Origin: Microcystis aeruginosa NIES-2549
GTDB lineage: Bacteria > Cyanobacteriota > Cyanobacteriia > Cyanobacteriales > Microcystaceae
Length of the DNA stretch: 32,000 nucleotides
Reading direction: 5' to 3'
Assembly: GCF_000981785.2 (NCBI RefSeq)
Contig: NZ_CP011304.1
Span: forward strand, 3,060,001-3,092,000
In this document: piece by piece, positions 3,766 to 27,510 of the stretch
Layout: each line of letters begins with the position of its first letter
How positions within the stretch are numbered: position 1 is the stretch's first letter
The notes under the pieces: generated by a model
The model's input: the letters and a program-made list of their open reading frames with translations, nothing else
Told to the model about the DNA's origin: nothing
Databases searched by the model: none
Position numbers and translations under genes: made by a program

Positions 3766-3793
3766 ATTTGTTTTCAAAAGGCTACAATCATCA

Positions 3794-3823
3794 GGTAAGG
3801 AAAATTAATTCCTTACCTTTTTT
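3794..3823 (+). terminator. Rho-independent terminator after chlN
   Basis: GGTAAGGAA..TTCCTTACC stem followed by TTTTTT. Confidence 0.65.
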
Positions 3824-3935
3824 CCTGTGATTGTTTGCCGATTCTGAGGACAATTCTTGTTCAAATGCTCAACAAGTGCATAAAATAAAAGTATCGTCTC
3901 CTTTATTCCTTAGAGACTTTTAGGGTTAATATGCA

Positions 3936-5228
3936 ATGCTCATCGGATTTAGTGTCGGCAATTATCGCTCTTTTAAAGATGTAGTAACTCTCAGTATGGT
4001 AGCTGCAGAGGATGCCTGTAGTAATGATGAGCTTGATAAAAATAATGTTTTTAAGGTTAATCAACAATTTAGTTTACTGAAAAGTGCCGCTATTTATGGA
4101 GCAAATGCCAGTGGTAAGAGTAATTTAATTCTGGCATTCAATTTTATGCGACGGTTTGTCATGAATTCTGCAAAATTACAAATCACTGACAAAATAGATG
4201 TGGAACCCTTTAGATTAAATACCGAAACTGTTGATAAACCATCCTTTTTTGAAATAGTTTTTCAGCTAAAAAATAAAACTTATAGATATGGATTTGAAGT
4301 AACTCAAAAGCGAGTAGTTTCCGAATGGTTATTTTGTACGCCCAGAAGTCGTGAAACTAAAATTTTTAATCGGCAAGACGATAAAATAGAATATAGCAAA
4401 AATATTGAACAAGGTAATATACTAAGAGGATTGACCAAAAAAAATACTCTGTTTTTATCACTAGCGGCTCAATTTAATAATTCTCTAGCGGTGGAAATTG
4501 TCTCTTGGTTTAGTCACTTAGGTGTTGTGTCTGGGTTAGATGTGGAATTATTAAAAGCGATTACGCTTGAGCATCTTTCTAATAGACAAGATTTGATTGA
4601 TGATGTGATTAAGTTAATTAAAAAATTAGATTTAAGTATTGACAATCTCAACCTAGAAATAGAAAGCAGAAAAATTTCCTTAGACAGTCTCCCGCAAGAT
4701 TTACCGGATGTTGTCAGAAATATCATCAGTCACTCTAGCGGTGAAATAAAGTCCGCTACCATAAAAACCTATCATCCAAAGTATGACTCAACAGGTAAAA
4801 TGATTGAGTTAGAAATTTTTGATATGGACAATCATGAATCTGATGGAACTAAAAAGATTTTGGCTCTGTCAGCACCGATTTTAGACACTTTGCAAAGAGG
4901 GGAAGTTTTAGTAATTGATGAATTGGATGCCAGACTTCATCCTTTAATGACTAGAAGTATAATCGAATTATTTAATTCTCAGAAAACTAATCCCAAAAAT
5001 GCTCAACTTATTTTTACTACTCACGATATTAATTTACTTAGTCATAAATTTTTAAGGAGGGATCAAATTTGGTTTACCGAAAAAAATCATCAAGGAGCAA
5101 CAGATTTATATTCTTTGGTGGAATTTGCTGATATTAATAATAATAATACCTTTGAAAAAGATTATATTCAAGGTCGTTATGGAGCAATACCTTTTATTGG
5201 TGATTTAAGTACAATTATTGGTAATTAG
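3936..5228 (+). CDS. ABC/SMC-like AAA ATPase (AAA_15/AAA_21 type), AbiLi/RloA-like
   Basis: 430 aa. Motifs: Walker A GANASGKSN, Walker B VLVIDELDARLHP, then IFTTHD, and C-terminal YIQGRYGAIPFIG. The gene is AT-rich relative to its neighbours by eye. Confidence 0.85.
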   Translation: MLIGFSVGNYRSFKDVVTLSMVAAEDACSNDELDKNNVFKVNQQFSLLKSAAIYGANASGKSNLILAFNFMRRFVMNSAKLQITDKIDVEPFRLNTETVDKPSFFEIVFQLKNKTYRYGFEVTQKRVVSEWLFCTPRSRETKIFNRQDDKIEYSKNIEQGNILRGLTKKNTLFLSLAAQFNNSLAVEIVSWFSHLGVVSGLDVELLKAITLEHLSNRQDLIDDVIKLIKKLDLSIDNLNLEIESRKISLDSLPQDLPDVVRNIISHSSGEIKSATIKTYHPKYDSTGKMIELEIFDMDNHESDGTKKILALSAPILDTLQRGEVLVIDELDARLHPLMTRSIIELFNSQKTNPKNAQLIFTTHDINLLSHKFLRRDQIWFTEKNHQGATDLYSLVEFADINNNNTFEKDYIQGRYGAIPFIGDLSTIIGN

Positions 5229-5229
5229 T

Positions 5230-5874
5230 ATGAGTAACAATAGGAATACTTCTGATTATTTGCGTCGCCAAACTAAGACTAGAGAAACAAGAAAAAGATT
5301 TTTAATTATTTGCGAGGGAGAAAAAACTGAAGTTAACTATTTTAAGGCTTTTACTGTTCCTAAGAAAATTGAAGTTAGGGTGAAAGGTGAAGGTAAAAAT
5401 AGCTTGAGTTTAGTAGAAAAAGCTATTAAGATGATAGATAATCTAAAAAAAGATGACTCATTTGATCAAATCTGGTGCGTTTTTGATAAAGATAACTGTT
5501 CTAAAGAGCAATTTAATCAAGCAGAAGGACTGGCTAAAGAACAAAATATCAAGATTGCCTATTCTAATGAAGCTTTTGAAATTTGGTTTATTTTACACTT
5601 TCAATATCTGGATATTGCCACATCCCGAAGTGAATACCCAAAAATTTTAAATACCCAGATGAAAAAGTGTAAATTATTAAACGAAAAAGAACAATATGCA
5701 AAAAATCGAGAGGATATGTACGAAAAATTAAAGCCATACCAGACAACAGCAATCACTAATGCAGCAAAACTTATTCAAGATAGAGATGAAGCAAAAAAAC
5801 ATCCTTTTGATGCCAATCCCTCAACCACAGTGCAGGAATTAGTGCAAGAACTTAACATCAATAGTCGTCCTTAA
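5230..5874 (+). CDS. RloB-like (Toprim-type) protein, AbiLii-like partner of the upstream ATPase
   Basis: Motifs FLIICEGEKTEVNYF, IWCVFDKD and AYSNEAFEIWFILHF. I prefer ATG 5230, one nt after the upstream TAG. The track start at 5218 is a TTG that overlaps the upstream gene. Confidence 0.85.
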   Translation: MSNNRNTSDYLRRQTKTRETRKRFLIICEGEKTEVNYFKAFTVPKKIEVRVKGEGKNSLSLVEKAIKMIDNLKKDDSFDQIWCVFDKDNCSKEQFNQAEGLAKEQNIKIAYSNEAFEIWFILHFQYLDIATSRSEYPKILNTQMKKCKLLNEKEQYAKNREDMYEKLKPYQTTAITNAAKLIQDRDEAKKHPFDANPSTTVQELVQELNINSRP

Positions 5875-5985
5875 GCTTGATTCTATTTTGTCAATAATTA
5901 AATATTTAATTTCAATTTAAACCTAAAGTTGTTATAATAACTAAAAGCCTATTTAACCAAAGTAACTGCTCTTAATTTGATTTAA

Positions 5986-6789: not shown

Positions 6790-6998
6790 TGTTCAGAAAT
6801 CATTTTCATTAAGACTTCCTCTTTTTCCTGACTTTCGGGATAACAGGAGATAAGTTTAGCGCGTAATTCCTGGGACAAAATAATCGATCACCTTGTCTAA
6901 GTAGGGTACATTAATTGGCTCAAAAAAGTGTATTTTGTTGCGAATATGTAATGATTTTTGACAAAAGTAAATTCTCACCCCAAAAAATTCGCTTCTTC

Positions 6999-7205: not shown

Positions 7206-7607
7206 ATGTCAGACGCAACTCGTTTAACACCGGACAAAATTGCTCAGTACCGTATTCAATTTGCCGACAATGAGAACGCTTTAATTGCACTTGATGTTAT
7301 TGAGGAATGGGAGGTAGATTTAGCAGATGCTGCTGAATCTATTGCCACTCGTAACGGTATTGAAGGGGTAGAAGATAATGCTGATTTTCGTTGGTTTGTT
7401 ATTATTCTTAATAAATGCCGTGATTCTATCTGTCAATCGAAGTTGCGAGAAAAATATTTACCCGCACTTATTCCTACTCTAACAGGTATTATTGTAGGAT
7501 ATATTATATTATCTCCGCAAGTCGCAGGAATTTTATCAACTATAGTTGCTGTTTATATTCAAGAGCAAGGACTCGATAAGTTTTGTCAAAATTATTCCGA
7601 TTCTTAA
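7206..7607 (+). CDS. Hypothetical protein with an acidic N-terminal half and a hydrophobic C-terminal segment
   Basis: 133-aa ORF with no motif I recognise. The hydrophobic stretch LPALIPTLTGIIVGYIILSPQVAGILSTIVAVYI suggests 1-2 TM helices. Confidence 0.5.
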   Translation: MSDATRLTPDKIAQYRIQFADNENALIALDVIEEWEVDLADAAESIATRNGIEGVEDNADFRWFVIILNKCRDSICQSKLREKYLPALIPTLTGIIVGYIILSPQVAGILSTIVAVYIQEQGLDKFCQNYSDS

Positions 7608-7626
7608 ACGGTTGAACGGATAAGAC

Positions 7627-7725
7627 ATGATCGAAATTCGCCAGACTAAAACTTATTCTGAGTGGTTTAGTGCTTTGCGCGATCGCCAAGCAAAAGCGCG
7701 TATAGACATTCGTATTCGTCACTAG
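7627..7725 (+). pseudogene. Truncated addiction-module killer (RelE/ParE superfamily) toxin remnant
   Basis: The 32-codon ORF MIEIRQTKTYSEWFSALRDRQAKARIDIRIRH matches the conserved N-terminus of killer proteins, which normally run about 95-100 aa. It ends at a TAG, a second TAG follows two codons later, and then comes the antidote RBS. Confidence 0.65.
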
Positions 7726-7754
7726 GTTTAGCCGGCGACTTATAGGAGGTATTT

Positions 7755-8045
7755 ATGGCTACTATCCAAACCTATCCTTGGAATGCTGCAGATCATCTGC
7801 AAACACAAGAAGATATAGCGGCATATCTTGAAGCTGCTCTCGAAGATGGTGATCCGAGTTTAATAATAGCAGCATTAGGTGATATTGCCCGCGCTAAAGG
7901 AATGACAAATATTGCCAGTGAAACAGGGTTAGAAAGTGAAAATCTCTGCAAAGATTTGTTAAGCGAAGGTAATCTAGAGTTTACTACAGTTATTAAGATT
8001 TTACAGGCATTTGGATTACGTCTCCAGATTGTACCCATTACCTAA
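7755..8045 (+). CDS. Addiction-module antidote protein (HigA-type, XRE-like HTH)
   Basis: 96 aa. The sequences PWNAADHLQTQEDIAAYLEAALEDGDPSLI..ALGDIARAKGMT.IA..TGL and FTTVIKILQAFGLRL are typical of this antidote family. aggagg lies 6 nt before the ATG. Confidence 0.85.
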   Translation: MATIQTYPWNAADHLQTQEDIAAYLEAALEDGDPSLIIAALGDIARAKGMTNIASETGLESENLCKDLLSEGNLEFTTVIKILQAFGLRLQIVPIT

Positions 8046-8057
8046 TTCTTCTGACTC

Positions 8058-8947
8058 TTAAATCCCTGTTGCGATAAATGCCGTCCAATAATAGGGATTG
8101 GCAAAGGGATAGGGTTGACGTTTAACCGCAGCTTCTAATAAGTCTTGGAATTTTCTTCTATCCCGTTTACTCTCAAAGACTCGATCGAGTAATTGTTGGA
8201 ATTTTTGACTATCTTTAATTCTGGCTAATTTTTTACTATTCAATGTTCTTAACCATGTTTGTGTATTATTTAAAACAATGGCAATACTCCCTTGATCTTG
8301 GATAGAAATCCGTTTAAGATCGTGATAAAATTTAGTCATAAATAACGTATTTGTTAGGGGATATACTGTCCAAAGGGTACTAACTACACTAGAACTTCCT
8401 GCAAATAGAAAACCACTGGGTAACCCCACATATTCATCACTAATACTATCAGCTTTACTTTCGATTATACCACTTTCACAAGCAGAAAAAGTAACTAAGC
8501 GGCATTCTCTTAAGTCAAATTTTTCAAATACTTCTGCTAGGGTTAGGTTAGCTAATTCTCCTAAGTTACCGTCTGGATCTGCTAACATTAATGCGGAGTC
8601 TCTAGGGGATTTACTATCAAATTTTCCATGACAGGAAAAATGAATACAATGGGATGCTTGTAATTCTTGACGACGGTTTTCTAGGGTTTGTTCTGATGCT
8701 TCTAATTCCCCAATAATAATAGTTTTTTCAGTAGCAAATACTTGACTAATTCTCTCGATTTTTAGATTTGCACCTAAGAGAGGTTTTAGGTCTTTTCTGG
8801 TGGGGTTTTTAATGGCAAAAAGACGAGTAAAGTTTTCTCGCTGTGATAATTTTACCAGTTTTAAAAGTTGGCAACTGGGAACGTATCCTACACCATTAGA
8901 AAAGCGTTGATAGAGAAATTGTCCATTGTTTAGGGGTAAACAATGAA
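8058..8947 (-). pseudogene. C-terminal fragment of a CHAT-domain (caspase-like) protein, cut at its 5-prime side by the ISL3 element
   Basis: The frame is open from 8058 up to the IS boundary, whereas the track shows it only from Met at 8588. It translates to LHCLPLNNGQF...GYVPSCQLL...ASHCIHFSCHGKF...RLVTFSACESG...GLPSGFLFAGSSSVVSTLW. The His (HFSCHG) and Cys (SACESG) dyad motifs are both present. There is no start codon or N-terminal region. Confidence 0.8.
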
Positions 8948-10364
8948 GGCTCTTCCGAACTTGTCATGTAAAATTAAAAAAAAACAGACAATTATTGCTG
9001 ACCAATAAAACAATAATTTATCTTTAAAAGCTGACTATGCTTGCAATACAGCAATTTATTGTTTAAAATATAGACAGCCAAGACCAGCAATTTTAGACAC
9101 AAGCTATACTTATGCCATCAAATCCACAATTAAAGTTAATGACCGAGCTACTTCACCTAGAAGGAGTTGTCGTTACCAATTATCAAATTATTACCGATAT
9201 AGGAATTGTTTTACATTTAGAAAATATGTCAAGAGAAAGCCAGTGCATTCATTGTGGAAGTAAAACGGAAAAAGTTCATCAAAACAATGAATTAACAATC
9301 CGAGATTTACCCTTTGGAGAACAGGCATTATATCTGAGAATCAATCGTCGTCAGATGAGATGCGAGAAATGTGGGAAAAAATTCACAGAAGAACTAAATT
9401 ATTTGCCGAAGAAAAGAACCTACACAGACAGATTTAGAAAAAAAATAGTGGCCGAAGTCCTGAATAGTGATCTCAAAAATACGGCAGAAAGAAATGGAGT
9501 AAGCGAACAAGAAATAGAGACGATGCTCAAAGACTTAGGAGAAGAGTTAATAACCGCAAAACCTCAAGGGCTAAAAAAACTAGGAATAGATGAAATAGCC
9601 ATGATAAAGGGAAAAGGAAATTACTATGCTGTGTTAGTAAATATAGACACAGGAAAAATTATAGGCTTAGGGGAAAAAAGAACAGAAGAAGCATTAACAG
9701 AATATCTGAAACACTGGGGAGAAGAGGTTTTGAGCCAAATAGAGGAAGTAAGTATAGACCTGTGGATAGGGTATAAAAATGTGGCAGAAAAACTAATGTC
9801 TCAAGCTCAAATAGTAGGGGATAGATTCCATGTAATGAAACAAGTAAATAACGAGCTAGATGAAGCAAGAAAGGAGGTAAAAAGAGAGGCAGCTAAGATA
9901 AAAAACAAGAAAAATAAAGAAAATATCTTAGCAGGAATAGCCAAGAGCAAATATGCCTTATTAAAGAATGAAGGAGACTTAGTAGAGAAAGAAAGGAAAA
10001 AATTGGAAGAAATATATAAAGTGTCTCCAAAACTTGGGGAAATGCACAAATTAAAAGAGGAATTTAGAGAAGTATTTGAGAAAAATACGGAGGGGAATGA
10101 GGGATTATTTGCCTTGAGTGATTGGCTCAAAAAGGCGATGGCTTACTTTCCTAAAAGCTGCCAGACAATTCGGCGGTGGATTGACGAAATAACTGCCTAT
10201 TTTGATAACCGAACAACCCAGGGAACAGTTGAAGGAATTAATAATAAACTGAAGGTGATTAAAAGGAGAGGCTATGGATTTAGAAACTTTAAAAACTTTA
10301 GTCTTAGATGTTTATTAAATTGGCATTTTGCTAGTTGATTTTACATGGTAAGTTCGGAAGAACC
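8948..10364 (+). mobile_element. ISL3-family insertion sequence, apparently intact (1417 bp)
   Basis: The terminal inverted repeats are GGCTCTTCCGAACTTGTCATGTAAAAT (8948-8974) and the reverse complement of 10338-10364, GGTTCTTCCGAACTTACCATGTAAAAT. They enclose one transposase ORF. The 8-bp flanks differ (acaatgaa vs ggatttct), so there is no target duplication. Confidence 0.85.
9112..10338 (+). CDS. ISL3 family transposase
   Basis: 408 aa. The N-terminal zinc-finger region is CIHCGS...CEKCGKKF. The body (DEIAMIKG..YYAVLVN, DRFHVMKQVN, ..EGINNKLKVIKRRGYGFRNF) is typical of ISL3 DDE transposases. Confidence 0.9.
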   Translation: MPSNPQLKLMTELLHLEGVVVTNYQIITDIGIVLHLENMSRESQCIHCGSKTEKVHQNNELTIRDLPFGEQALYLRINRRQMRCEKCGKKFTEELNYLPKKRTYTDRFRKKIVAEVLNSDLKNTAERNGVSEQEIETMLKDLGEELITAKPQGLKKLGIDEIAMIKGKGNYYAVLVNIDTGKIIGLGEKRTEEALTEYLKHWGEEVLSQIEEVSIDLWIGYKNVAEKLMSQAQIVGDRFHVMKQVNNELDEARKEVKREAAKIKNKKNKENILAGIAKSKYALLKNEGDLVEKERKKLEEIYKVSPKLGEMHKLKEEFREVFEKNTEGNEGLFALSDWLKKAMAYFPKSCQTIRRWIDEITAYFDNRTTQGTVEGINNKLKVIKRRGYGFRNFKNFSLRCLLNWHFAS

Positions 10365-10963
10365 GGATTTCTTGACTGGGCAAATAAGTCAAATATGTCT
10401 GCCTCACAATCTCCGATTGTTACTACTTGAATTTCTTCGGGTATTTGTTGTTGTGTTTCTGACAAAGAATCTAACCATCTTTGACTTTCTTTTTCTTGAG
10501 TTTCTCTTTTTTTTCTTTGCTTGGCAATCCCTAAATTCTTTTCTTCTCTTGCCCAGACATATTGATTAATCAGTCCTAAAGGTACTCCTTGCGCTGAGAC
10601 TCCTAATGTGGTATGAACTTTGAGACCAAAGGATGTTTTACAATCTAGATAACCCATTCCTTTTTTGGCTTTTTGCGTCGTAAAGTCTAAACTTGTTGTG
10701 TCTTGCACTGCCAAAACTATTGGATGTTCTTTGATTCTTTCTACTGTACTTTTAGCTTGGGCGGCAATTATATCTGAGGGGTGAAAATAGGGGGAATTCC
10801 AAAAGTCGTAGGTGGCACTGGCGGCGGCTAGATTTCCCGAAGCTTGTGGCACACTTGTACTAGGTTGGCTGGCCAAGTTTTCTACGATACTGATTAACCT
10901 TTTCTTTCTTCTGGTGTCCCCTAGGTCTGCATACTGTAATTCTTGGGCTGCCCATTTCTCCAT
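10365..10963 (-). pseudogene. N-terminal ~200 aa of an IS4-family (Tn5-like) transposase, truncated by the ISL3 insertion
   Basis: MEKWAAQELQYADLGDTRRKKRL...ATYDFWNSP...VLAVQDTTSLDF...IGDCEADIFDLFAQ then runs into the ISL3 inverted repeat at 10364/10365. The C-terminal catalytic half is absent. The outer end of this IS remnant lies somewhere in 10964-11075 and is not defined. Confidence 0.8.
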
Positions 10964-11075
10964 TTTTTTGCTTACCTCCACCTTAATTCCTTCTTTCAAA
11001 ACTATACCTATCAATCGTTTCCCCTTTTTTTAAGTTTCTTCTCTTTTTGTTAAGAAAGATCCGACTAATGGATAG

Positions 11076-11135
11076 CTTTTGAAGGGGGGTTAGGGGGGAT
11101 CAAACCTTTTGAAGGGGGGTTAGGGGGGATCAAAC
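11076..11135. repeat. Perfect 30-bp tandem duplication CTTTTGAAGGGGGGTTAGGGGGGATCAAAC x2
   Basis: 11076-11105 and 11106-11135 are identical. The duplication sits exactly where TPR-CHAT homology stops and produces the artefactual ORF tail GLIPPNPPSKGLIPPNPPSK. Confidence 0.95.
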
Positions 11136-12777
11136 CCTCATTAGTAACAATAAACGCCATAATACTATCCCCTGCAATATACCATTCTAAAATAGCAGTA
11201 TCTTGATCAATTAAGGATTGAATCTCACTTAGAGGAATACTTTCAACCTTTTGAGTTAAGCTAAAAGTGGGGTCTATGGGGGTTATTTCTCGGTCAATGA
11301 GTTGATTTAATTCTTGTTTTAACTGATTGAGGTGAGTATAGTCATTTAAGATGGGTTGTTTTTGTTCATCTAGGGTTAAAATTACTCCCCGATTGCGGGT
11401 TTGTTCTTGGATGGCTAACCGTTGTTCTTCCCCAATAATGGCACGACGGAGGCGATCTAATTCGGTAATAATAGTTGGGGGGATATTACCTTTAGGATAA
11501 ATATCTCGGTCGGTAAGCAATTGGACTAAATAGCGGGTTTTGCTGCGTTCAACGTATTCTAATGCGCGATCTTTTTGATTGAGGTTGAGATAGGATTGAA
11601 CTATGCCATGATAAACATCCATTGCATCGGAGAGAATTTCTTGTTGTCGTTGGGGGTTTAAAGCTTCGAGTCGAATATTTTCTACTGCTTTGATCGCTAA
11701 GTTGTAGCCTTTGATGGCGTTTTCCCAGTCTTCGATCAGGTTAGCAGTCTTTCCTAAGTTTCGTCCTGTTCCTAAACAGTTTATAGGAAAAGATGTGGGG
11801 GTATATACTTCTAATGACAGGTTATAAGCTGCGATCGCTAACTCTAGATTTTCAATAGCTAACTCTAGATTTTCTGCCCTTTTCCAAAGAATGGGATCTC
11901 TATAAGCATTCCCCAGATTATGTTTTGACCTTGCCCATTGTTCAGGAAAGTTTTCACGGGTATATACTTCTAAAGATAGGTTATAAGCTGTGATCGCTAA
12001 CTCTAGATTATTCGCCCTTTCCCCTCTGATGCGATATAGATAAGCAGTCCCCAAATTATTTTGTATTATTGCCCAATCATAAGGAAAAGCATCACGAGTA
12101 TATACTTCTAAAGACAGGTTATAAGCCGCGATCGCTAATTCTAGATTTCGTTCTCTTTCCCCTCTGATGCGATATATATAAGCAGACCCCAAATCATTTT
12201 GTATTATTGCCCAATCATAAGGAAAGGCATCACGGGTTAATACTTCTAAGATGGTCTGATAGCCTGTAATAGCAATTTCCAGATTATTAGCCCGACTTCT
12301 CAAGGGGAACTGTCGAATACTAATACATAAATTTTGAATCACCCCTGCAATAACCGCCACTTCTTCTGCCTTGCCTTGAGAAAACACATTTCTAGCGTAT
12401 TCTTGCAACAGTTGGGCAAAAGTATCATCTAACAAATGTTGACGGCGTTGTAGGATAGGATAAACCACCGTAGGATCGCTATTACTGTCATATTCTGCTT
12501 GTAAGACTTCTAATAAAAACTCCTGATATTCCTCTATACTTCTCGCTTGAGGGTTGAGAAACTGCCCCAACTGTTGCGCTATATCCCGTAACAAAGCCGC
12601 AGGATTATTATTTCCTTGTTGTTCTAACCCTGTTGCATAGTTTTCCATCACCTGCAAAAATTCGGGGTCAATCAATTCCTGATTAGCTTGCAGAATATTA
12701 TTGAGTTCCTCATCATCAGTACAAGCGAGCAACTGTTCAATTAAATTAATATATGCTTGGGCGCGTTGTTCATTCAT
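11136..12777 (-). pseudogene. N-terminal part (TPR repeats) of the disrupted TPR-CHAT gene
   Basis: The fragment starts MNEQRAQAYINLIEQLL.... It carries about 42-aa repeats NLELAI.AYN.SLEVYTR.AFP.DWA..QNNLG.AY..R. It ends in AILEWYIAGDSIMAFIVTNEG, the usual lead-in to a CHAT domain, and then enters the 30-bp repeats. It is on the same strand as the CHAT fragment at 8058-8947. Confidence 0.8.
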
Positions 12778-17236: not shown

Positions 17237-17309
17237 TGCCGATGTAGCTCAGTGGTAGAGTAGTTGATTCGTAATCAATTGGTCGTGGGTTCAAATCCCA
17301 TCATCGGCT
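17237..17309 (+). tRNA. tRNA-Thr (anticodon CGU)
   Basis: Folded by hand into a cloverleaf. Acceptor: GCCGATG/CATCGGC. D arm: GCTC AGTGGTA GAGT. Anticodon arm: GTTGA TTCGTAA TCAAT. T arm: GTGGG TTCAAAT CCCAT. The discriminator is T, and no CCA is encoded. Confidence 0.9.
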
Positions 17310-21465: not shown

Positions 21466-21939
21466 TCAAGAACGATTATCGCGATTAACTTTTCTGATTA
21501 ACCAATAACTTGCCGCTAAAGCTAAGGTTCCCACGGTGAGGGCAATTAAATCATCTTTACTGTATTTATTGGGATCAAAAATAATAATTTTTCGAGAGAT
21601 AGCAATTAAAGCCGTAACTACTACTAATTCAACCTGTACGATGTGTTTTCTTAAGTAAGCAGTGACGTTTTCTAATAACTCTAAGGCGATCAAAATATTG
21701 AGAAATAATCCGAAGATTTCAATTAAAGTTTTACTAAAAAAACCGACGGGTTCCGTAGTAAATAGGTCTTTGATTAGGATAACTACTAGGTCATAAAGAG
21801 AAACAATAATAACAACAATTAAGGCTACGGATAAAACCTTAGAAACTATGTTTTCAATGAGATGAATCGACCTCATGAAATCTTCATCGCGCCATTGTTG
21901 ACCGAAATTGATAAGTAGTTTCCGTATCTGTTTGAGCAT
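21466..21939 (-). CDS. PsiE-like (phosphate-starvation-inducible E family) membrane protein
   Basis: 157 aa with four hydrophobic helices. The motif ..FGLFLNILIALELLENV..Y and VVTALIAISRKIII resemble PsiE. Confidence 0.6.
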   Translation of the reverse strand: MLKQIRKLLINFGQQWRDEDFMRSIHLIENIVSKVLSVALIVVIIVSLYDLVVILIKDLFTTEPVGFFSKTLIEIFGLFLNILIALELLENVTAYLRKHIVQVELVVVTALIAISRKIIIFDPNKYSKDDLIALTVGTLALAASYWLIRKVNRDNRS

Positions 21940-22200: not shown

Positions 22201-23040
22201 CTAGCTAACATCATCGTGAGCGAAACGATTATAGAGGAAGTCGAGGGCATAGTTACGCAGACGATAATATTCCGGATCCTCCATAATTCTCTCTCGATCG
22301 CGGGGACGGGGGAAATGAATATTCATCACTTCGCCGATTTTCGCTTCCGGTCCATTGGTCATCATTACCAGCTTATCAGCGAGGAAAAGGGCCTCATCGA
22401 TATCGTGGGTAATCATCAACACCGTACAGCGTTTATCTTGCCAGATTTTCAGCAATTCTTCCTGTAATTCCTCTTTAGTAATCGCATCCAAGGCACCGAA
22501 AGGTTCATCAAGAATCAACACTTCCGGACGGATAGAAAGAGCGCGAGCGATCGAAACCCGTTGTTTCATCCCCCCGGAGATTTGGGGAGGGGTTTTGTCC
22601 ATAGCTTCGGTTAAACCCACCATAGCTAAATGTTCGCGCACGATCGAGCGTTTTTGTGCCTCTGGAGCATTGGGAGACACCGCATCTACCGCGAGATAGA
22701 CATTTTCAAAAACACTTAACCAAGGCAATAAAGCATAGTTTTGAAACACTACCATGCGATCGGGCCCGGGTTTAGTAATTTTCTTGCCGTTAACTTTAAC
22801 AATGCCATCGGTGGGAGAAGAAAAACCCGACACCATATTTAATAGGGTGGATTTACCGCAACCGGAGTGACCGATCACACAGATAAATTCACCTTCATTG
22901 ATACTGAGATTAACATCCTTGAGGACGGTGTAGGGGCCTCTAGGAGTGGGATAAACCTTAGAAACTCCTTCAATGGTAACAAAAGCTTCTTTAGTGGGGG
23001 CCTGGGTTGCCCGGTTAACGGTGTCGGTGGTGGTATACAT
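22201..23040 (-). CDS. nrtD: Nitrate/nitrite ABC transporter ATP-binding protein NrtD
   Basis: Motifs: Walker A GHSGCGKST, signature SGGMKQRVSIARAL, Walker B LILDEPFGALD. It is last in the nrtABCD order. I chose the start at MYTTTD (23040); the alternative is 23076. Confidence 0.92.
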   Translation of the reverse strand: MYTTTDTVNRATQAPTKEAFVTIEGVSKVYPTPRGPYTVLKDVNLSINEGEFICVIGHSGCGKSTLLNMVSGFSSPTDGIVKVNGKKITKPGPDRMVVFQNYALLPWLSVFENVYLAVDAVSPNAPEAQKRSIVREHLAMVGLTEAMDKTPPQISGGMKQRVSIARALSIRPEVLILDEPFGALDAITKEELQEELLKIWQDKRCTVLMITHDIDEALFLADKLVMMTNGPEAKIGEVMNIHFPRPRDRERIMEDPEYYRLRNYALDFLYNRFAHDDVS

Positions 23041-23119
23041 GATTAGTCTTTGGGGGAAATTAGTTAATAGGGGCAATGGCCGGGGATAATTGGCTAGGAA
23101 TTATCCCCTTAGTCGATTT

Positions 23120-25138
23120 TTAGGCAATTTTGCGAGATTCACTGGCACTAGGACGAGCATCAATAGCCACTTCGGCCATGGTGACGTTTTGTTTGATCTC
23201 TAAACTATTGAGATAACCGATCGGATCCTCGGCATCAAACTCGATACCATCGAATAAAAGGATCGGTGTGCGACGATATTTAATATCCCCTAGACCCAAT
23301 TCCCGGGCCGCGGTACTAAAAACACCCACCCGACAGACGCGTTCGAGAATTTCTACCCAGTTACGGGGGAAAGGAATGTGGCCCCAGCGTGCCATTTGGG
23401 TCATCATCCAGAGGTGTTCGGTACGACTGGGACGATTTACCCCTTCTCCATAGAACAGATGGTGTGCATATTCTTTCATCGGTCGATCGAGACTGCACGC
23501 ATAGGAGTTGGGATCACCCAGTTGGATATAATCGATATTGGTACTAAGATACTGACGACTGGCGAGGATTTGACGAATTTCTTCCTGATTCCCTTCCTCG
23601 GCACAGTAGCGACAACCTTCCAGCAGTGCTTTAACTAAAGCGACATGGGTATTAGGGTATTTATTGGCCCAATCTTCCCGGACTCCCAGGGCCTTACCCG
23701 GGTGGCCCTGCCAGATTTCTAAGTCGGTGGCGACGGTGTAACCGATACCTTCCATGGCGGACCTGAGATTCCAAGGTTCACCGACACAGTAACCGTCAAT
23801 ACTACCGGTTTTCAGGTCGGCTACCATTTGGGCCGGGGGAATAGTTTCGAGGTGAACATCTTTATCGGGGTCAATTCCCGCTGCCGCTAACCAGTAACGC
23901 AGGAGCAAATTGTGCATCGAGGAGGGGTGAACAATGCCAAAAATATGGCGCTGCTCCTTCGATTCCAATAGCATCTGTCTTAAGGCGTTACCGTCAATCA
24001 CTCCCTCGTCATAGAAGCGTTTAGCGAGGGTGACACCGTTACCGTTACGAGTCATAGTCAGGGCGCTGACAATCGGCAAAGGTTGCTCCTGATAACCACC
24101 GACGGTTAACCAGGTGGGCATTCCTGAAGGCATTTGCGCCCCGTCGAGGAATCCCCCCGCGATCCCGTCCACAACGCCTCGCCAACTGGTTTCCCGGACT
24201 AAATTCACCTCATCTAGACCATGTTTAGTGAAGAATCCCTTTTCTTTGGCCACTGCTAGGGGCGCGCAAGCGGTGAGGGGAACAAAACCGATTTCTAGAT
24301 TGACTTTTTCTAAACCGTGACGGGCAATCACTTCGACTTTGCGGGCGCGTAGTTTTTTGATCCGTTTTTGTTGGTTGAGGAAATAGATAATTTCACTCCG
24401 GAGACTGTAGTAACTGGGGTGTTCCACCACTTCCATGCGTTTGCGGGGACGGGGGATATCCACTTCCAAAATACCGCCAATTTTTGAGCCGGGGCCGTTG
24501 GTGAGCATGACGATGCGATCGGATAACAGCACCGCTTCATCCACATCGTGCGTCACCATTACCGAGGTCATTTCGTATTCTTCGCACAGCTGCATTAACT
24601 GTTCCTGTAGATTACCTCTAGTCAGGGCATCTAACGCCCCAAAGGGTTCATCTAAAAGCAGGACTTTCGGACGAATGGCTAGGGCGCGAGCGATCGCTAC
24701 CCGTTGTTTCATCCCCCCCGATAATTCGTTGGGACGTTTATCCACTGCATGACGAAGATTGACCAGATCGATATATTTTTCGACTTCGGCTTTTCTTTCG
24801 TCTTCTGATAGTTGGGTGAGAACTTGATCGACGGCTAGAGTGATATTTTCTTTGACGGTTAACCAGGGTAAAAGGGAATAGTTTTGGAAGACTACCATGC
24901 GATCGGGACCTGGTTTTTTAATGCTTTGACCTTGCAAAGTCACCACCCCTTCTGTGGGCAAATCTAAACCAGCGATCATGTTTAAGAGGGTGGATTTTCC
25001 GCAACCGGAGTGACCGATGAGGGAGATAAATTCCCCTTTTTTTATCTGTAAATCGATCCCTTTCAAGGCCACATATTCACCGCCACCACTAAGGGGGAAT
25101 ACTTTATCAATGTTATCGACAGCGACAAACAAACTCAT
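23120..25138 (-). CDS. nrtC: Nitrate/nitrite ABC transporter ATP-binding protein NrtC (ATPase fused to an NrtA-like C-terminal regulatory domain)
   Basis: 672 aa. The N-terminal ABC ATPase has GHSGCGKST, SGGMKQRVAIARAL and LLLDEPFGALD. About 380 C-terminal aa resemble NrtA (GFVPLTACAPLAVAKEKGFF..., RYWLAAAGIDPDKDV). Confidence 0.95.
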   Translation of the reverse strand: MSLFVAVDNIDKVFPLSGGGEYVALKGIDLQIKKGEFISLIGHSGCGKSTLLNMIAGLDLPTEGVVTLQGQSIKKPGPDRMVVFQNYSLLPWLTVKENITLAVDQVLTQLSEDERKAEVEKYIDLVNLRHAVDKRPNELSGGMKQRVAIARALAIRPKVLLLDEPFGALDALTRGNLQEQLMQLCEEYEMTSVMVTHDVDEAVLLSDRIVMLTNGPGSKIGGILEVDIPRPRKRMEVVEHPSYYSLRSEIIYFLNQQKRIKKLRARKVEVIARHGLEKVNLEIGFVPLTACAPLAVAKEKGFFTKHGLDEVNLVRETSWRGVVDGIAGGFLDGAQMPSGMPTWLTVGGYQEQPLPIVSALTMTRNGNGVTLAKRFYDEGVIDGNALRQMLLESKEQRHIFGIVHPSSMHNLLLRYWLAAAGIDPDKDVHLETIPPAQMVADLKTGSIDGYCVGEPWNLRSAMEGIGYTVATDLEIWQGHPGKALGVREDWANKYPNTHVALVKALLEGCRYCAEEGNQEEIRQILASRQYLSTNIDYIQLGDPNSYACSLDRPMKEYAHHLFYGEGVNRPSRTEHLWMMTQMARWGHIPFPRNWVEILERVCRVGVFSTAARELGLGDIKYRRTPILLFDGIEFDAEDPIGYLNSLEIKQNVTMAEVAIDARPSASESRKIA

Positions 25139-25208
25139 AGTTTTTTCTCCTTAAATTGGCTCAAGTTTCAGTTATTTGAAAAATGGGGAAACTTTCCCCA
25201 TTAATTCC

Positions 25209-26039
25209 CTATTGACGAACGATTTGATTTTGCAACCAAGCCATAAAGCGATCGAGTAATAAACCCACACCACCGATATAAAACAGCGCAAGAATAATAT
25301 CGCTGATGTAGTTATTTTGGTAGGCATCCCAGATAAAGAAACCGATACCGACGATACCCGACATAACAATTTCCGCCGCAATAATCGCTAACCAAGCTAA
25401 ACCGATCGCAATTCTCAAACCAGTGAATATGTAGGGAAGAGCCGAGGGAATTAATATCTTGAAAAAGAATTTTTTGCTGGACAATTGCAAGACTTGTTTA
25501 ACGTTGATATAGTCTTGGGGAATTTGTTGGACACCGACGGTGGTATTAATCAAAATCGGCCAAACTGCGGTAATAAAGATAACGAATAAAGCAGCAGGTT
25601 GGTTTTGTTGTAAAGCGGCCAAAGATAGGGGAACCCAAGCAAGAGGAGGAACTGTTCTCAGGAATTGAAAAAGGGGATCGAGGGCCTTATTTAAGAAAGA
25701 ATTTAAACCGACCATAATCCCAACTCCAATACCAACCACTGCGGCTAAAGAATAACCGATTAATACCCGTTGCAGACTGGCTAAAGTTTGCCAGAATAGT
25801 CCCTTATCAATGCCCCCACGATCAAAGAAAGGATACATTAAATAAGTACGAGTCCGTTCATTGGTGATTAGGTCGGATGGGGGGGGTAATTTGATTAATC
25901 CCACCATCGAGACTAATTGCCAAACAATCAGAAAACCCAAGGTACCGATAATGGGGGGAAGAATGTCTTGGGAATGCTTTTTCCAGAATTTACTGAAGTT
26001 GAAACCACCTTTACTTGTTTTGCTGACGCTACTTGCCAT
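25209..26039 (-). CDS. nrtB: Nitrate/nitrite ABC transporter permease NrtB
   Basis: Polytopic membrane protein of the binding-protein-dependent permease type. I chose the start at MASSVSK (26039, with aaggaaaa upstream), which gives 276 aa. The track start is 26096. Confidence 0.9.
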   Translation of the reverse strand: MASSVSKTSKGGFNFSKFWKKHSQDILPPIIGTLGFLIVWQLVSMVGLIKLPPPSDLITNERTRTYLMYPFFDRGGIDKGLFWQTLASLQRVLIGYSLAAVVGIGVGIMVGLNSFLNKALDPLFQFLRTVPPLAWVPLSLAALQQNQPAALFVIFITAVWPILINTTVGVQQIPQDYINVKQVLQLSSKKFFFKILIPSALPYIFTGLRIAIGLAWLAIIAAEIVMSGIVGIGFFIWDAYQNNYISDIILALFYIGGVGLLLDRFMAWLQNQIVRQ

Positions 26040-26151
26040 TTTGCCGTTTTCCTTTGTTGAAGATAAAGTTACTTGATTGGGGAGAGAAGAAAACACTTTT
26101 GGGATTAATAGACTAGATATTTTATGCCCCTAGCCTATCGAGAAAAGCTCG

Positions 26152-27510
26152 CTATTTTTTGATCGCCAAACTATCGAGATAAGCTTGGGGATTGGCAGGA
26201 TCAAAAGTTTTGCCATCAAAGAATTTTTCGACACCCCTGGAGGTACTGGTGGGAATATCAGCTGCGGGAACCCCTAACTCTGTAGCTGCCGCTTTCCAAA
26301 GATCCTCGCGGTTAACTTTGTCGATTAAGGCTGAGGCAGTGGTTAAAGTTTCTTTCGGCAAGAAACCCCAACGAACACTTTCGGTTAAAAACCAGAGATC
26401 ATGACTCTTGTAGGGATAGGAAACGCTACCGGCGGGATCTTTCCAGTAGAAAACCCCTTTATTTTTGTCGGTGATTTCCGGTTTACCGTCACCCATTTTC
26501 TGCATTCCTTTGAGGGGACTGGCGATAATTTCTTCTTTGAGGTTGAAATAAGCCGGTTTAGCGAGAATTGCCGCCGCTTCTGCCCGATTTGCCTCTTGAT
26601 CGAGCCATTGCTGCGCTTCCATAATTCCTTTTAATAAGGCCTTGGTGGCTTTCGGGTTTTTATCCACCCAATCGGCGCGGATAGCGAGGTATTCTTCCGG
26701 GTGATAGGGCCAGATTTCTGCGGTTAAAGCTGACATAAAACCGATCTGATCGGCCACAATTCGCGCCGGCCAAGGATCACCGGTACTAAACGCATCCATG
26801 GTTCCCGTTTTCATGTTGGCCACGGTTTGGGCTGCGGGTACGGCAATTAGATTAATATCCGTATCGGGGTTAATACCACCGGCGGCTAACCAGTAACGAA
26901 TCCAGAAGTCTTGGTTAGCTTTCGGGAAAGTATAGGCAGCTTTGAAGGGAGTTCCCGTCGTTTTCATGCTGAGGATGTAATCTTTGGCGGGTTTCAGGTC
27001 TAAACCGATATTTTTGCCCTCGTGTTTAGATGCGATCGCGATTGCGTTACCCTGGGTGTTTAACTGCGCTAACACATACATGGGGACTTTAACGTTATTT
27101 TTGGTGATTAGTCCCTCAGAAATTAGGTAAGGCATGGGCATTTGCCACTGTCCTCCGTCAATTCCGCCCGCATCTGCCCCAATTTCGACGTTATCTCTAG
27201 CAGATCCCCAGTTTGCTTGTTTGGAGACTTCCACATCGGCCATCCCGTATTTAGCAAAAAAGCCTTTTTCCTTGGCAATAATTAAGGGTGCGGCCTCAAC
27301 GATAGGAATATAACCTAATTTAATTTTGGTGGTTTCGGGGGCCTCTCCGGGGGCCACCGCTACGGGAGAAGCAACCGGGGCAGCGGGCGCGGTGGTGGTG
27401 GTTCCACCCGTAGTGTCGGGGGGATTACCCAAACAACCTTTGAGGACAACAGCCCCTGCCGCTGAAACTGCCGCCGTGGTTAAAAATTTCCGTCTCGAAA
27501 AATTTGACAT
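26152..27510 (-). CDS. nrtA: Nitrate/nitrite-binding lipoprotein NrtA
   Basis: 452 aa. It has a Tat-like signal plus lipobox ([22 protein letters not shown]), then a Pro/Thr/Ala linker. [22 protein letters not shown] and [12 protein letters not shown] are typical of NrtA. Confidence 0.95.

Follow-up and report, generated by a model that had tools for sequence, protein, structure and literature searches.

An AbiL-type ATPase–RloB gene pair of foreign composition at a polymorphic chromosomal site in Microcystis

Gene organization of the chlN–udp locus

The chromosome of Microcystis aeruginosa NIES-2549 carries, between the gene chlN and a nucleoside phosphorylase gene (udp), a two-gene cassette related to the abortive-infection system AbiL. 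We analyzed this cassette within a stretch of 32,000 nucleotides (nt) of contig NZ_CP011304.1 (positions 3,060,001 to 3,092,000, hereafter the window, to which all coordinates refer unless another locus is named). By exact look-up of its proteins, the window also corresponds to the M. aeruginosa chromosome CP012375.1 (GCA_001704955.2). The first open reading frame (ORF1) encodes an ABC-type ATPase of 430 amino acids (aa), and the second (ORF2) encodes an RloB-family protein. The two genes are adjacent, co-oriented on the plus strand and 1 nt apart, and their products match the AbiLi and AbiLii models of PADLOC, respectively, so that the pair is an AbiL system in the sense of PADLOC and bears out the AbiL-type assignment of an earlier preliminary description of this DNA. 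The locus contains the following features, each given with the evidence on which it rests.

3793..3824 (+), terminator-like hairpin of chlN (3793-3818) followed by a T-run; terminator scan and junction sequences
3825..5981, variable AT-rich segment of 2157 bp; alignment with empty-site alleles, content of guanine plus cytosine (GC)
3825..3935 (+), cassette leader, 111 bp; sequence read directly
3936-5228 (+), ORF1, abiLi-like gene, 430 aa; Pfam, PADLOC, family invariants, AlphaFold2 (AF2) model, Foldseek
5230-5874 (+), ORF2, rloB/abiLii-like gene, 214 aa from its ATG; Pfam, PADLOC, family invariants, AF2 model
5875..5985 (+), AT-rich spacer between rloB and udp; all but its last 4 bp lie within the variable segment
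directly downstream, udp, a PNP_UDP_1 nucleoside phosphorylase gene; Pfam

The preliminary description had proposed an AT-rich module at 3824-5985, placed directly 3' of the chlN terminator and built of two genes with recognizable motifs, and each of these elements was recovered. ORF1 carries Walker A GANASGKSN, Walker B VLVIDELDARLHP and FTTHD, and ORF2 carries ICEGEKTEVNYF, WCVFDKD and AYSNEAFEIWF. The junction between the two genes reads TAG-t-ATG (5226-5232), and the start of ORF2 only 1 nt after the ATPase stop codon suggests translational coupling. An in-frame TTG at 5218 is an alternative start that gives 218 aa; the length annotated for every database homologue is 214 aa. The hairpin and T-run of chlN, kept in both occupied and empty alleles, bound the variable segment on its left; the two kinds of allele are homologous up to 3824, and the proposed interval matches the indel 3825-5981 obtained from the alignment with empty alleles.

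The cassette forms a sharp block of low GC content, with 31.4% in 3825-5985 versus 42.2% in the remainder of the window, and this value lies below those of all 256 other 2160-bp windows (minimum 34.4%). The GC content at third codon positions is 24-26% in the cassette genes versus 30-42% in the flanking genes. The composition of the cassette is therefore foreign to its surroundings. The leader is near-identical across all seven alleles, and from its letters, read by eye, we infer a weak candidate promoter (TTGTTC at 3857-3862, an 18-nt spacer and TAAAAT at 3881-3886) and a putative imperfect palindrome, TTGTTCA/TCAACAA, that overlaps the candidate -35 element. A consensus promoter scan of the leader reported no site above background, this candidate included. 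A terminator scan detected none in the spacer 5875..5985, and an Rfam scan of the cassette and its vicinity revealed no RNA element.

The ATPase encoded by ORF1

ORF1 belongs to the Pfam family AAA_21 (PF13304; E 1.2e-46, 160.6 bits against a cut-off of 27), and matches PADLOC AbiLi at 2.8e-105. Of the two ATPase families named for it in the preliminary description, only PF13304 applies, since the score for PF13175 (AAA_15), 27.8 bits, is under the cut-off of 32.1. The protein is a Rad50/SMC-like ABC ATPase with a Walker A motif at G55-K61, a Walker B motif at D328-E329, an H-loop at H363 and a signature-like motif E301-S-x-G-T-x-K307. In an alignment of 58 ATPase partners of RloB proteins, the P-loop residues G55, N57, S59, G60 and K61, the motif E301-S-x-G-T-x-K307, the Walker B residues D328-E329-L-D331 and R374-R375-D376 are invariant, and at least 90% of the sequences keep H363. 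Judged by these residues, ORF1 probably encodes a catalytically competent ABC ATPase.

The AF2 model of the ATPase has a mean predicted local distance difference test score (pLDDT) of 83.4, and in Foldseek it matches, with E values from 1e-9 to 1e-7, Rad50 and SMC heads as well as the defence ATPases PtuA of Septu, that of retron-IA and OLD (Thermus OLD 6p74 at E 2e-7). In addition, hhalign aligned the ATPase family with the N-terminal half of Old at 90% probability. Most of the allelic variation falls in a helical insert (residues about 200-300); substitutions cluster at about 200-270 within it and in the loop 401-407. As a separate observation, the C-terminal tail (residues 398-423, window 5127-5204) is modeled with pLDDT < 50 and still contains the family-invariant residues Y410, G413, G416 and P419; RloB or an adjacent ATPase subunit may dock on this tail.

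The RloB-family protein encoded by ORF2

ORF2 matches Pfam RloB (PF13707) at 3.1e-47 (161.7 bits, cut-off 31.5) over the entire profile (positions 1-195 of 195), which agrees with the family named in the preliminary description, and PADLOC AbiLii at 1.9e-29; no NCBIfam model matches it. With 6499 clusters at 50% identity (E <= 1e-3), the RloB family is very large. Every Microcystis copy belongs to a single cluster, and among the nearest relatives outside it, which come from metagenome contigs and share at most 52% identity, no donor lineage was identified.

All 122 aligned relatives of ORF2 also match Pfam RloB. In this diverse set E34, Y37, W82, D86, W119, H123, Y156, A174 and P197 are invariant, and at least 90% of the sequences share E29, G30, T33, D88 and E117. 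The conserved acidic residues of ORF2 (E29, E34, D86, D88 and E117) are unchanged in 115 Microcystis cluster representatives, and in the same representatives the three motif blocks are nearly without variation, I27 on the margin of the first block being the sole variable position; the remaining variation falls outside the blocks, notably at residues 137-157.

The AF2 model of the RloB protein (pLDDT 92.4, predicted template modeling score 0.86) shows a beta-alpha-beta-alpha-beta-alpha-beta core, in which helices alternate with the strands 22-28, 47-53, 80-86 and 108-112; the C-terminal half is helical. E29 stands directly past strand 1, with E34 after it, and D86 and D88 close strand 3, which is the arrangement of Toprim domains. 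From this model, ORF2 is predicted to be a Toprim-like metal-dependent nuclease effector, with a Glu past strand 1 and a DxD past strand 3.

Distribution and selection of the cassette in Microcystis

A scan for ChlN yielded 80 cyanobacterial loci, nine from Microcystis species representatives and 71 from non-Microcystis cyanobacteria. Six of the nine representatives have the gene pair between chlN and udp, and the site is empty in the other three (alleles L006, L007 and L010), where the phosphorylase ATG follows about 80 bp past the chlN stop codon. Global alignment of occupied and empty alleles defines an indel of 2157 bp (3825-5981) versus about 14 bp of unrelated sequence in the empty alleles; thus, comparison of the chlN-to-phosphorylase interval, as the preliminary description had proposed, shows the segment to be polymorphic. 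Further Microcystis contigs, retrieved via two RloB variants, all contain the pair at the same chlN–udp site, and neither the pair nor udp adjoins chlN in any of the 71 non-Microcystis loci. The empty alleles are not grouped in flanking-gene distances, and presence and absence are not monophyletic, so that the polymorphism is scattered, a pattern to be expected where homologous recombination is frequent. The segment had been described as horizontally acquired by insertion. Its presence/absence pattern and foreign GC content agree with this description. The indel borders have no terminal inverted or direct repeats, integrase or tRNA (the repeats listed there are short AT-rich chance matches) and thus none of the hallmarks of a mobile element. 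The insertion itself is inferred, gain and loss not being distinguishable because no outgroup has the chlN–udp junction.

In each of the 15 Microcystis loci that were read, with nine distinct ATPase sequences among them, the two ORFs are intact, and the RloB protein is exactly 214 aa long in more than 115 cluster representatives. Both genes are under purifying selection: the ratio of nonsynonymous to synonymous substitution rates (dN/dS) is 0.37 for the ATPase and 0.47 for RloB versus 0.02-0.14 for chlL, chlN and udp, and dS is 0.05-0.08 in the cassette versus 0.09-0.12 in the same three genes.

Related cassettes in other hosts

The same layout of an AAA_21 gene followed by an rloB gene, the two overlapping or abutting, occurs on a Clostridium beijerinckii plasmid, and two unrelated contigs from metagenome-assembled genomes (MAGs) or metagenomes have such a pair between housekeeping genes. 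On 3.9-kb ColE1-type plasmids of E. coli the pair is the sole cargo (e.g., NZ_CP148458.1, 3915 bp), and the ATPase type was found on 188 plasmids, half of them mobilizable. We also observed that on many mobilizable ColE1-type plasmids of 3.9-6 kb from Enterobacterales and Acinetobacter, AAA_21 and RloB are nearly the sole cargo besides rop and mob. The cassette type is mobile, and in three of four cases in other hosts its GC content lies 7-13 points below that of its flanks.

As the lactococcal comparator we used ORF55/56 of the Lactococcus prophage proPhi7 in place of the founding AbiL of pND861, which was sought in the plasmid search and was absent among the matches listed. Both proPhi7 genes bear the annotation of an abortive phage resistance protein, have the same order and the identical stop-1nt-ATG junction, and match PADLOC AbiLi and AbiLii at 4.4e-76 and 4.7e-18. 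In full-length alignments, identity to the Microcystis proteins is 27% (E 1e-44) for the ATPase and 25% (E 2e-14) for the RloB protein, so that the Microcystis pair also belongs to AbiL by homology to a lactococcal AbiL-type pair.

Proposed function and alternative explanations

We propose that the gene pair is probably a self-contained AbiL-type two-gene anti-phage cassette, of foreign composition and subject to presence/absence polymorphism at the chlN–phosphorylase site in Microcystis, and that abortive-infection or toxin–antitoxin-like defence is its most likely function. In a mechanism proposed because of the analogy to PARIS, P2 Old and the NetFlax pairs of AAA antitoxin and TOPRIM toxin, the ATPase would have the role of sensor or antitoxin. 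In the uninfected cell an ATPase oligomer would bind the RloB protein and hold it inactive. A phage-derived cue would be read via the variable helical insert of the ATPase, and an ATP-dependent conformational change would then free or activate RloB, which would abort the infection by cleaving an essential nucleic acid (DNA, tRNA or another RNA). Among the analogous systems, AriA sequesters AriB, a tRNase (PMC11464382, PMC12409363), both AriB and P2 Old act as tRNases (PMC12409363; bioRxiv 10.64898/2026.07.10.737580), and AAA ATPases neutralize TOPRIM_OLD toxins experimentally (PMC10440598).

Several observations weigh against this proposal. The literature searched contains no tested cyanobacterial AbiL member, as the preliminary description had supposed. 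The cassette lies outside any defence island and its immediate neighbors are housekeeping genes, and dN/dS below 1 indicates constraint and is silent on which function is constrained. The remaining points concern the nuclease assignment. A Foldseek search of the RloB model against the PDB (350,000 chains) returned no neighbor at E <= 1e-3; the best neighbors have E 3e-3 and template modeling scores (TM) of 0.26-0.37, and none of the 50 matches listed is a Toprim or OLD entry. Searches of the PDB by phmmer with ORF2 alone and by hmmsearch with the 122-sequence family profile gave nothing meaningful. An hhalign comparison of the RloB family with a 114-sequence alignment of the P2-Old C-terminal part, in which CEGEKTE of RloB pairs with VEGKTE of P2 Old, was not significant (P = 0.024), and cross-matches of the 122 relatives to Toprim models are rare (Pfam Toprim in two, OLD-like_TOPRIM in one and PADLOC ATPase-Toprim_I-B in two). 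Thus, of the Toprim label given to RloB in the preliminary description, topology and motifs hold, and a link by Foldseek or profile comparison was not recovered.

The weak Rossmann-like Foldseek matches to PTS EIIA and lumazine synthase (TM 0.26-0.37) are non-specific, and these proteins were rejected as structural kin; a search of the BFVD returned only another RloB-like phage protein, and hhalign of the RloB family against the single P2 Old sequence was not significant. Because a model of pLDDT 92 has no significant PDB neighbor and the family has no solved structure, RloB might represent a distinct effector fold that has the Glu/DxD metal site alone in common with OLD-type Toprim nucleases, although we consider this doubtful. 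If it were so, AbiL-type cassettes could differ from PARIS and Old in substrate or activation route.

Four other explanations of the gene pair were considered, and all are less likely than anti-phage defence. The pair could be a selfish toxin–antitoxin (addiction) cassette, kept since its loss is harmful and giving no meaningful phage protection. Related AAA and TOPRIM_OLD pairs indeed act as toxin–antitoxin systems in E. coli (PMC10440598), a stabilizing function would pay on the tiny mobilizable plasmids of which the pair is often the sole cargo, and the AT-rich, foreign composition and the constraint relaxed relative to neighboring genes are in line with such an element. However, the clean empty sites of three species representatives imply that loss or absence is tolerated, a single-copy chromosomal site profits little from addiction, and phage protection is a property of the founding AbiL as well as of the related PARIS and Old systems (PMC13064643, PMC11464382); toxin–antitoxin behavior and defence are, moreover, not mutually exclusive. 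Addiction alone is thus an unlikely explanation. The absence of hsd and other restriction–modification (R-M) genes from the 32-kb window and from the 21-kb locus around the cassette makes it very improbable that the pair is an R-M accessory that works only with hsd genes, like RloA/RloB of Campylobacter type I R-M loci. This idea draws on the naming of the RloB family from such loci and on reports of AbiL associated with R-M (PMC3632139, PMC10440598), whereas every examined Microcystis copy lies between chlN and udp, and the plasmid and MAG relatives are stand-alone pairs.

A housekeeping module for DNA repair or recombination, composed of a Rad50/RecF-like ATPase and a RecR/OLD-like Toprim partner, would fit the best structural neighbors of the ATPase, Rad50 and SMC heads. 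Such a module would hardly be missing in a third of the Microcystis species representatives and from the chlN neighborhood of 71 other cyanobacteria, nor would it be expected to have foreign composition and high dN/dS or to be found on small plasmids and in prophages; moreover, the ATPase lacks a coiled-coil of Rad50 length in the AF2 model. We give this explanation very little credence, and equally little the view that the cassette is a decaying, no longer functional relic of a past transfer. The latter could account for the raised dN/dS, for a cassette dS that is not above that of the flanking genes and for the erosion of the neighborhood 3' of udp by insertion sequence (IS) elements, but the ORFs are full-length in every locus read, the RloB length is uniform among the cluster representatives, none of the catalytic motifs varies, dN/dS stays well below 1 and the leader is near-identical across alleles.

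AbiL is among the oldest named abortive-infection systems, and its mechanism, as the preliminary description stated, is still unresolved in the literature up to 2026 (PMC13064643; bioRxiv 10.64898/2026.07.10.737580); its RloB effectors form a very large family without a solved structure. The gene pair itself is unsurprising, as standard annotation and defence-finder tools already recognize an AbiL pair. Its interest lies in the host, a major bloom-forming, toxin-producing cyanobacterium in which phage interactions shape blooms, and in the clean occupied/empty chromosomal site, which provides matched natural genotypes for asking whether AbiL affects cyanophage host range. Because allelic variation concentrates in the helical insert of the ATPase, this insert is a candidate sensing surface. 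If the RloB fold proves distinct, the occupied and empty Microcystis alleles would be a ready system for finding the phage trigger in an ecologically important host.

Neighboring genes in the window

The cassette is flanked by chlL, a DUF5331 gene and chlN on one side and by udp on the other; the best match of Udp is uridine phosphorylase, below the equivalog cut-off. In the empty alleles about 14 bp separate the T-run of the chlN terminator from the udp start codon, which would leave udp no room for its own promoter; in the occupied alleles the cassette gives udp 111 bp of AT-rich upstream sequence without a detectable terminator. Since the upstream sequence of udp differs between occupied and empty alleles, the cassette may change udp transcription. 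The gene between chlL and chlN (1419-2348, +), a position at which a DUF5331 gene is found in many cyanobacteria, encodes a protein with two DUF5331 repeats that varies among strains (63-93% identity, 254 vs 309 aa), whereas ChlL and ChlN are 99-100% identical.

The DUF1350 gene that lies 3' of udp in other Microcystis strains is cut to a 27-aa remnant here (6792-6872), and in its place (7206-8045) there are an unannotated 133-aa ORF and a 96-aa ORF of the antitoxin-like "downstream of HI1420" family; the region directly 3' of the cassette and udp therefore also varies among strains. A CHAT-TPR gene, intact in another strain (1086 aa, locus L082 9226-12486), is split at 8064-12777 (-) into an N-terminal TPR part (12777-11128) and a C-terminal CHAT part (8948-8064). 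Between the two parts are a transposase gene of the ISL3 family and a fragment of an IS4/Tn5-like transposase (9112-10338 (+) and 10331-11014 (-)), which indicates a nested IS insertion. Farther downstream, the window contains a PsiE-family gene (21466-21939) and a nitrate/bicarbonate-type ABC transporter operon (22201-27510, -) whose products are two ABC ATPases, a permease and substrate-binding proteins of the NMT1_2 type; the window is thus for the most part housekeeping and not a defence island. The single RNA gene detected in the window, tRNA-Thr (CGT) at 17238-17309 (+), is distant from the cassette.

Comparison with known systems

AbiL has been grouped with systems that pair an ABC ATPase with a Toprim protein (PMC11464382, PMC12409363), and the Microcystis pair resembles several of these systems to different degrees. 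PARIS consists of the ABC ATPase AriA and the Toprim tRNase AriB; as in the Microcystis pair, a small nuclease (here a predicted one) comes after a separate ATPase that belongs to the AAA_15/21 group. ORF1 matches the PADLOC AriA model at 2.5e-45, and AbiL and PARIS were placed in one ATPase tree (PMC11464382). However, ORF2 has no AriB/DUF4435 match in Pfam or PADLOC, none of its 122 relatives matches AriB, and AriA is absent among the 50 Foldseek matches listed for the ORF1 model, so that the pair does not belong to PARIS; a lactococcal review also noted that AbiLii superposes poorly on AriB (PMC13064643). The OLD family (P2 Old, class 1-2 OLD and the Gabija protein GajA) shares with the pair an ABC ATPase combined with a Glu/DxD metal-dependent nuclease, here a predicted one. 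In contrast to its fused domains, the Microcystis proteins come from two ORFs that a stop codon separates in every allele, and neither profile nor fold comparison matched the RloB domain significantly to the Toprim domain of Old.

Among PADLOC candidate systems, the ATPase matches PDC-M12A at 5.5e-18 and HEC-01A at 1.4e-16, and 51 of the 122 RloB relatives cross-match PDC-M12B; these matches are far weaker than those to the AbiL models, and PDC-M12 and HEC-01 are sister families rather than the best assignment. The Pfam family of ORF2 takes its name from RloB of the Campylobacter type I R-M loci, but the Microcystis pair is not within an hsdR/M/S locus and thus differs from the R-M-linked RloA/RloB. 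The ATPase fold also resembles PtuA of Septu, whose second component, PtuB, is an HNH protein, whereas ORF2 is an RloB protein.

The closest correspondence is with AbiL of L. lactis, which has the same arrangement of an AAA_21 ABC ATPase gene followed by a co-oriented, adjacent RloB-family gene. The Microcystis pair differs from the lactococcal systems in sequence, being only 25-27% identical to the prophage pair examined, and in location, occupying a fixed housekeeping site of the chromosome, whereas the lactococcal pairs reside on a plasmid or prophage. Public records already label its proteins as "RloB family protein" or "abortive phage resistance protein", and defence-finder tools would call it AbiL. 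Thus, the Microcystis gene pair is an ordinary member of the known AbiL class.

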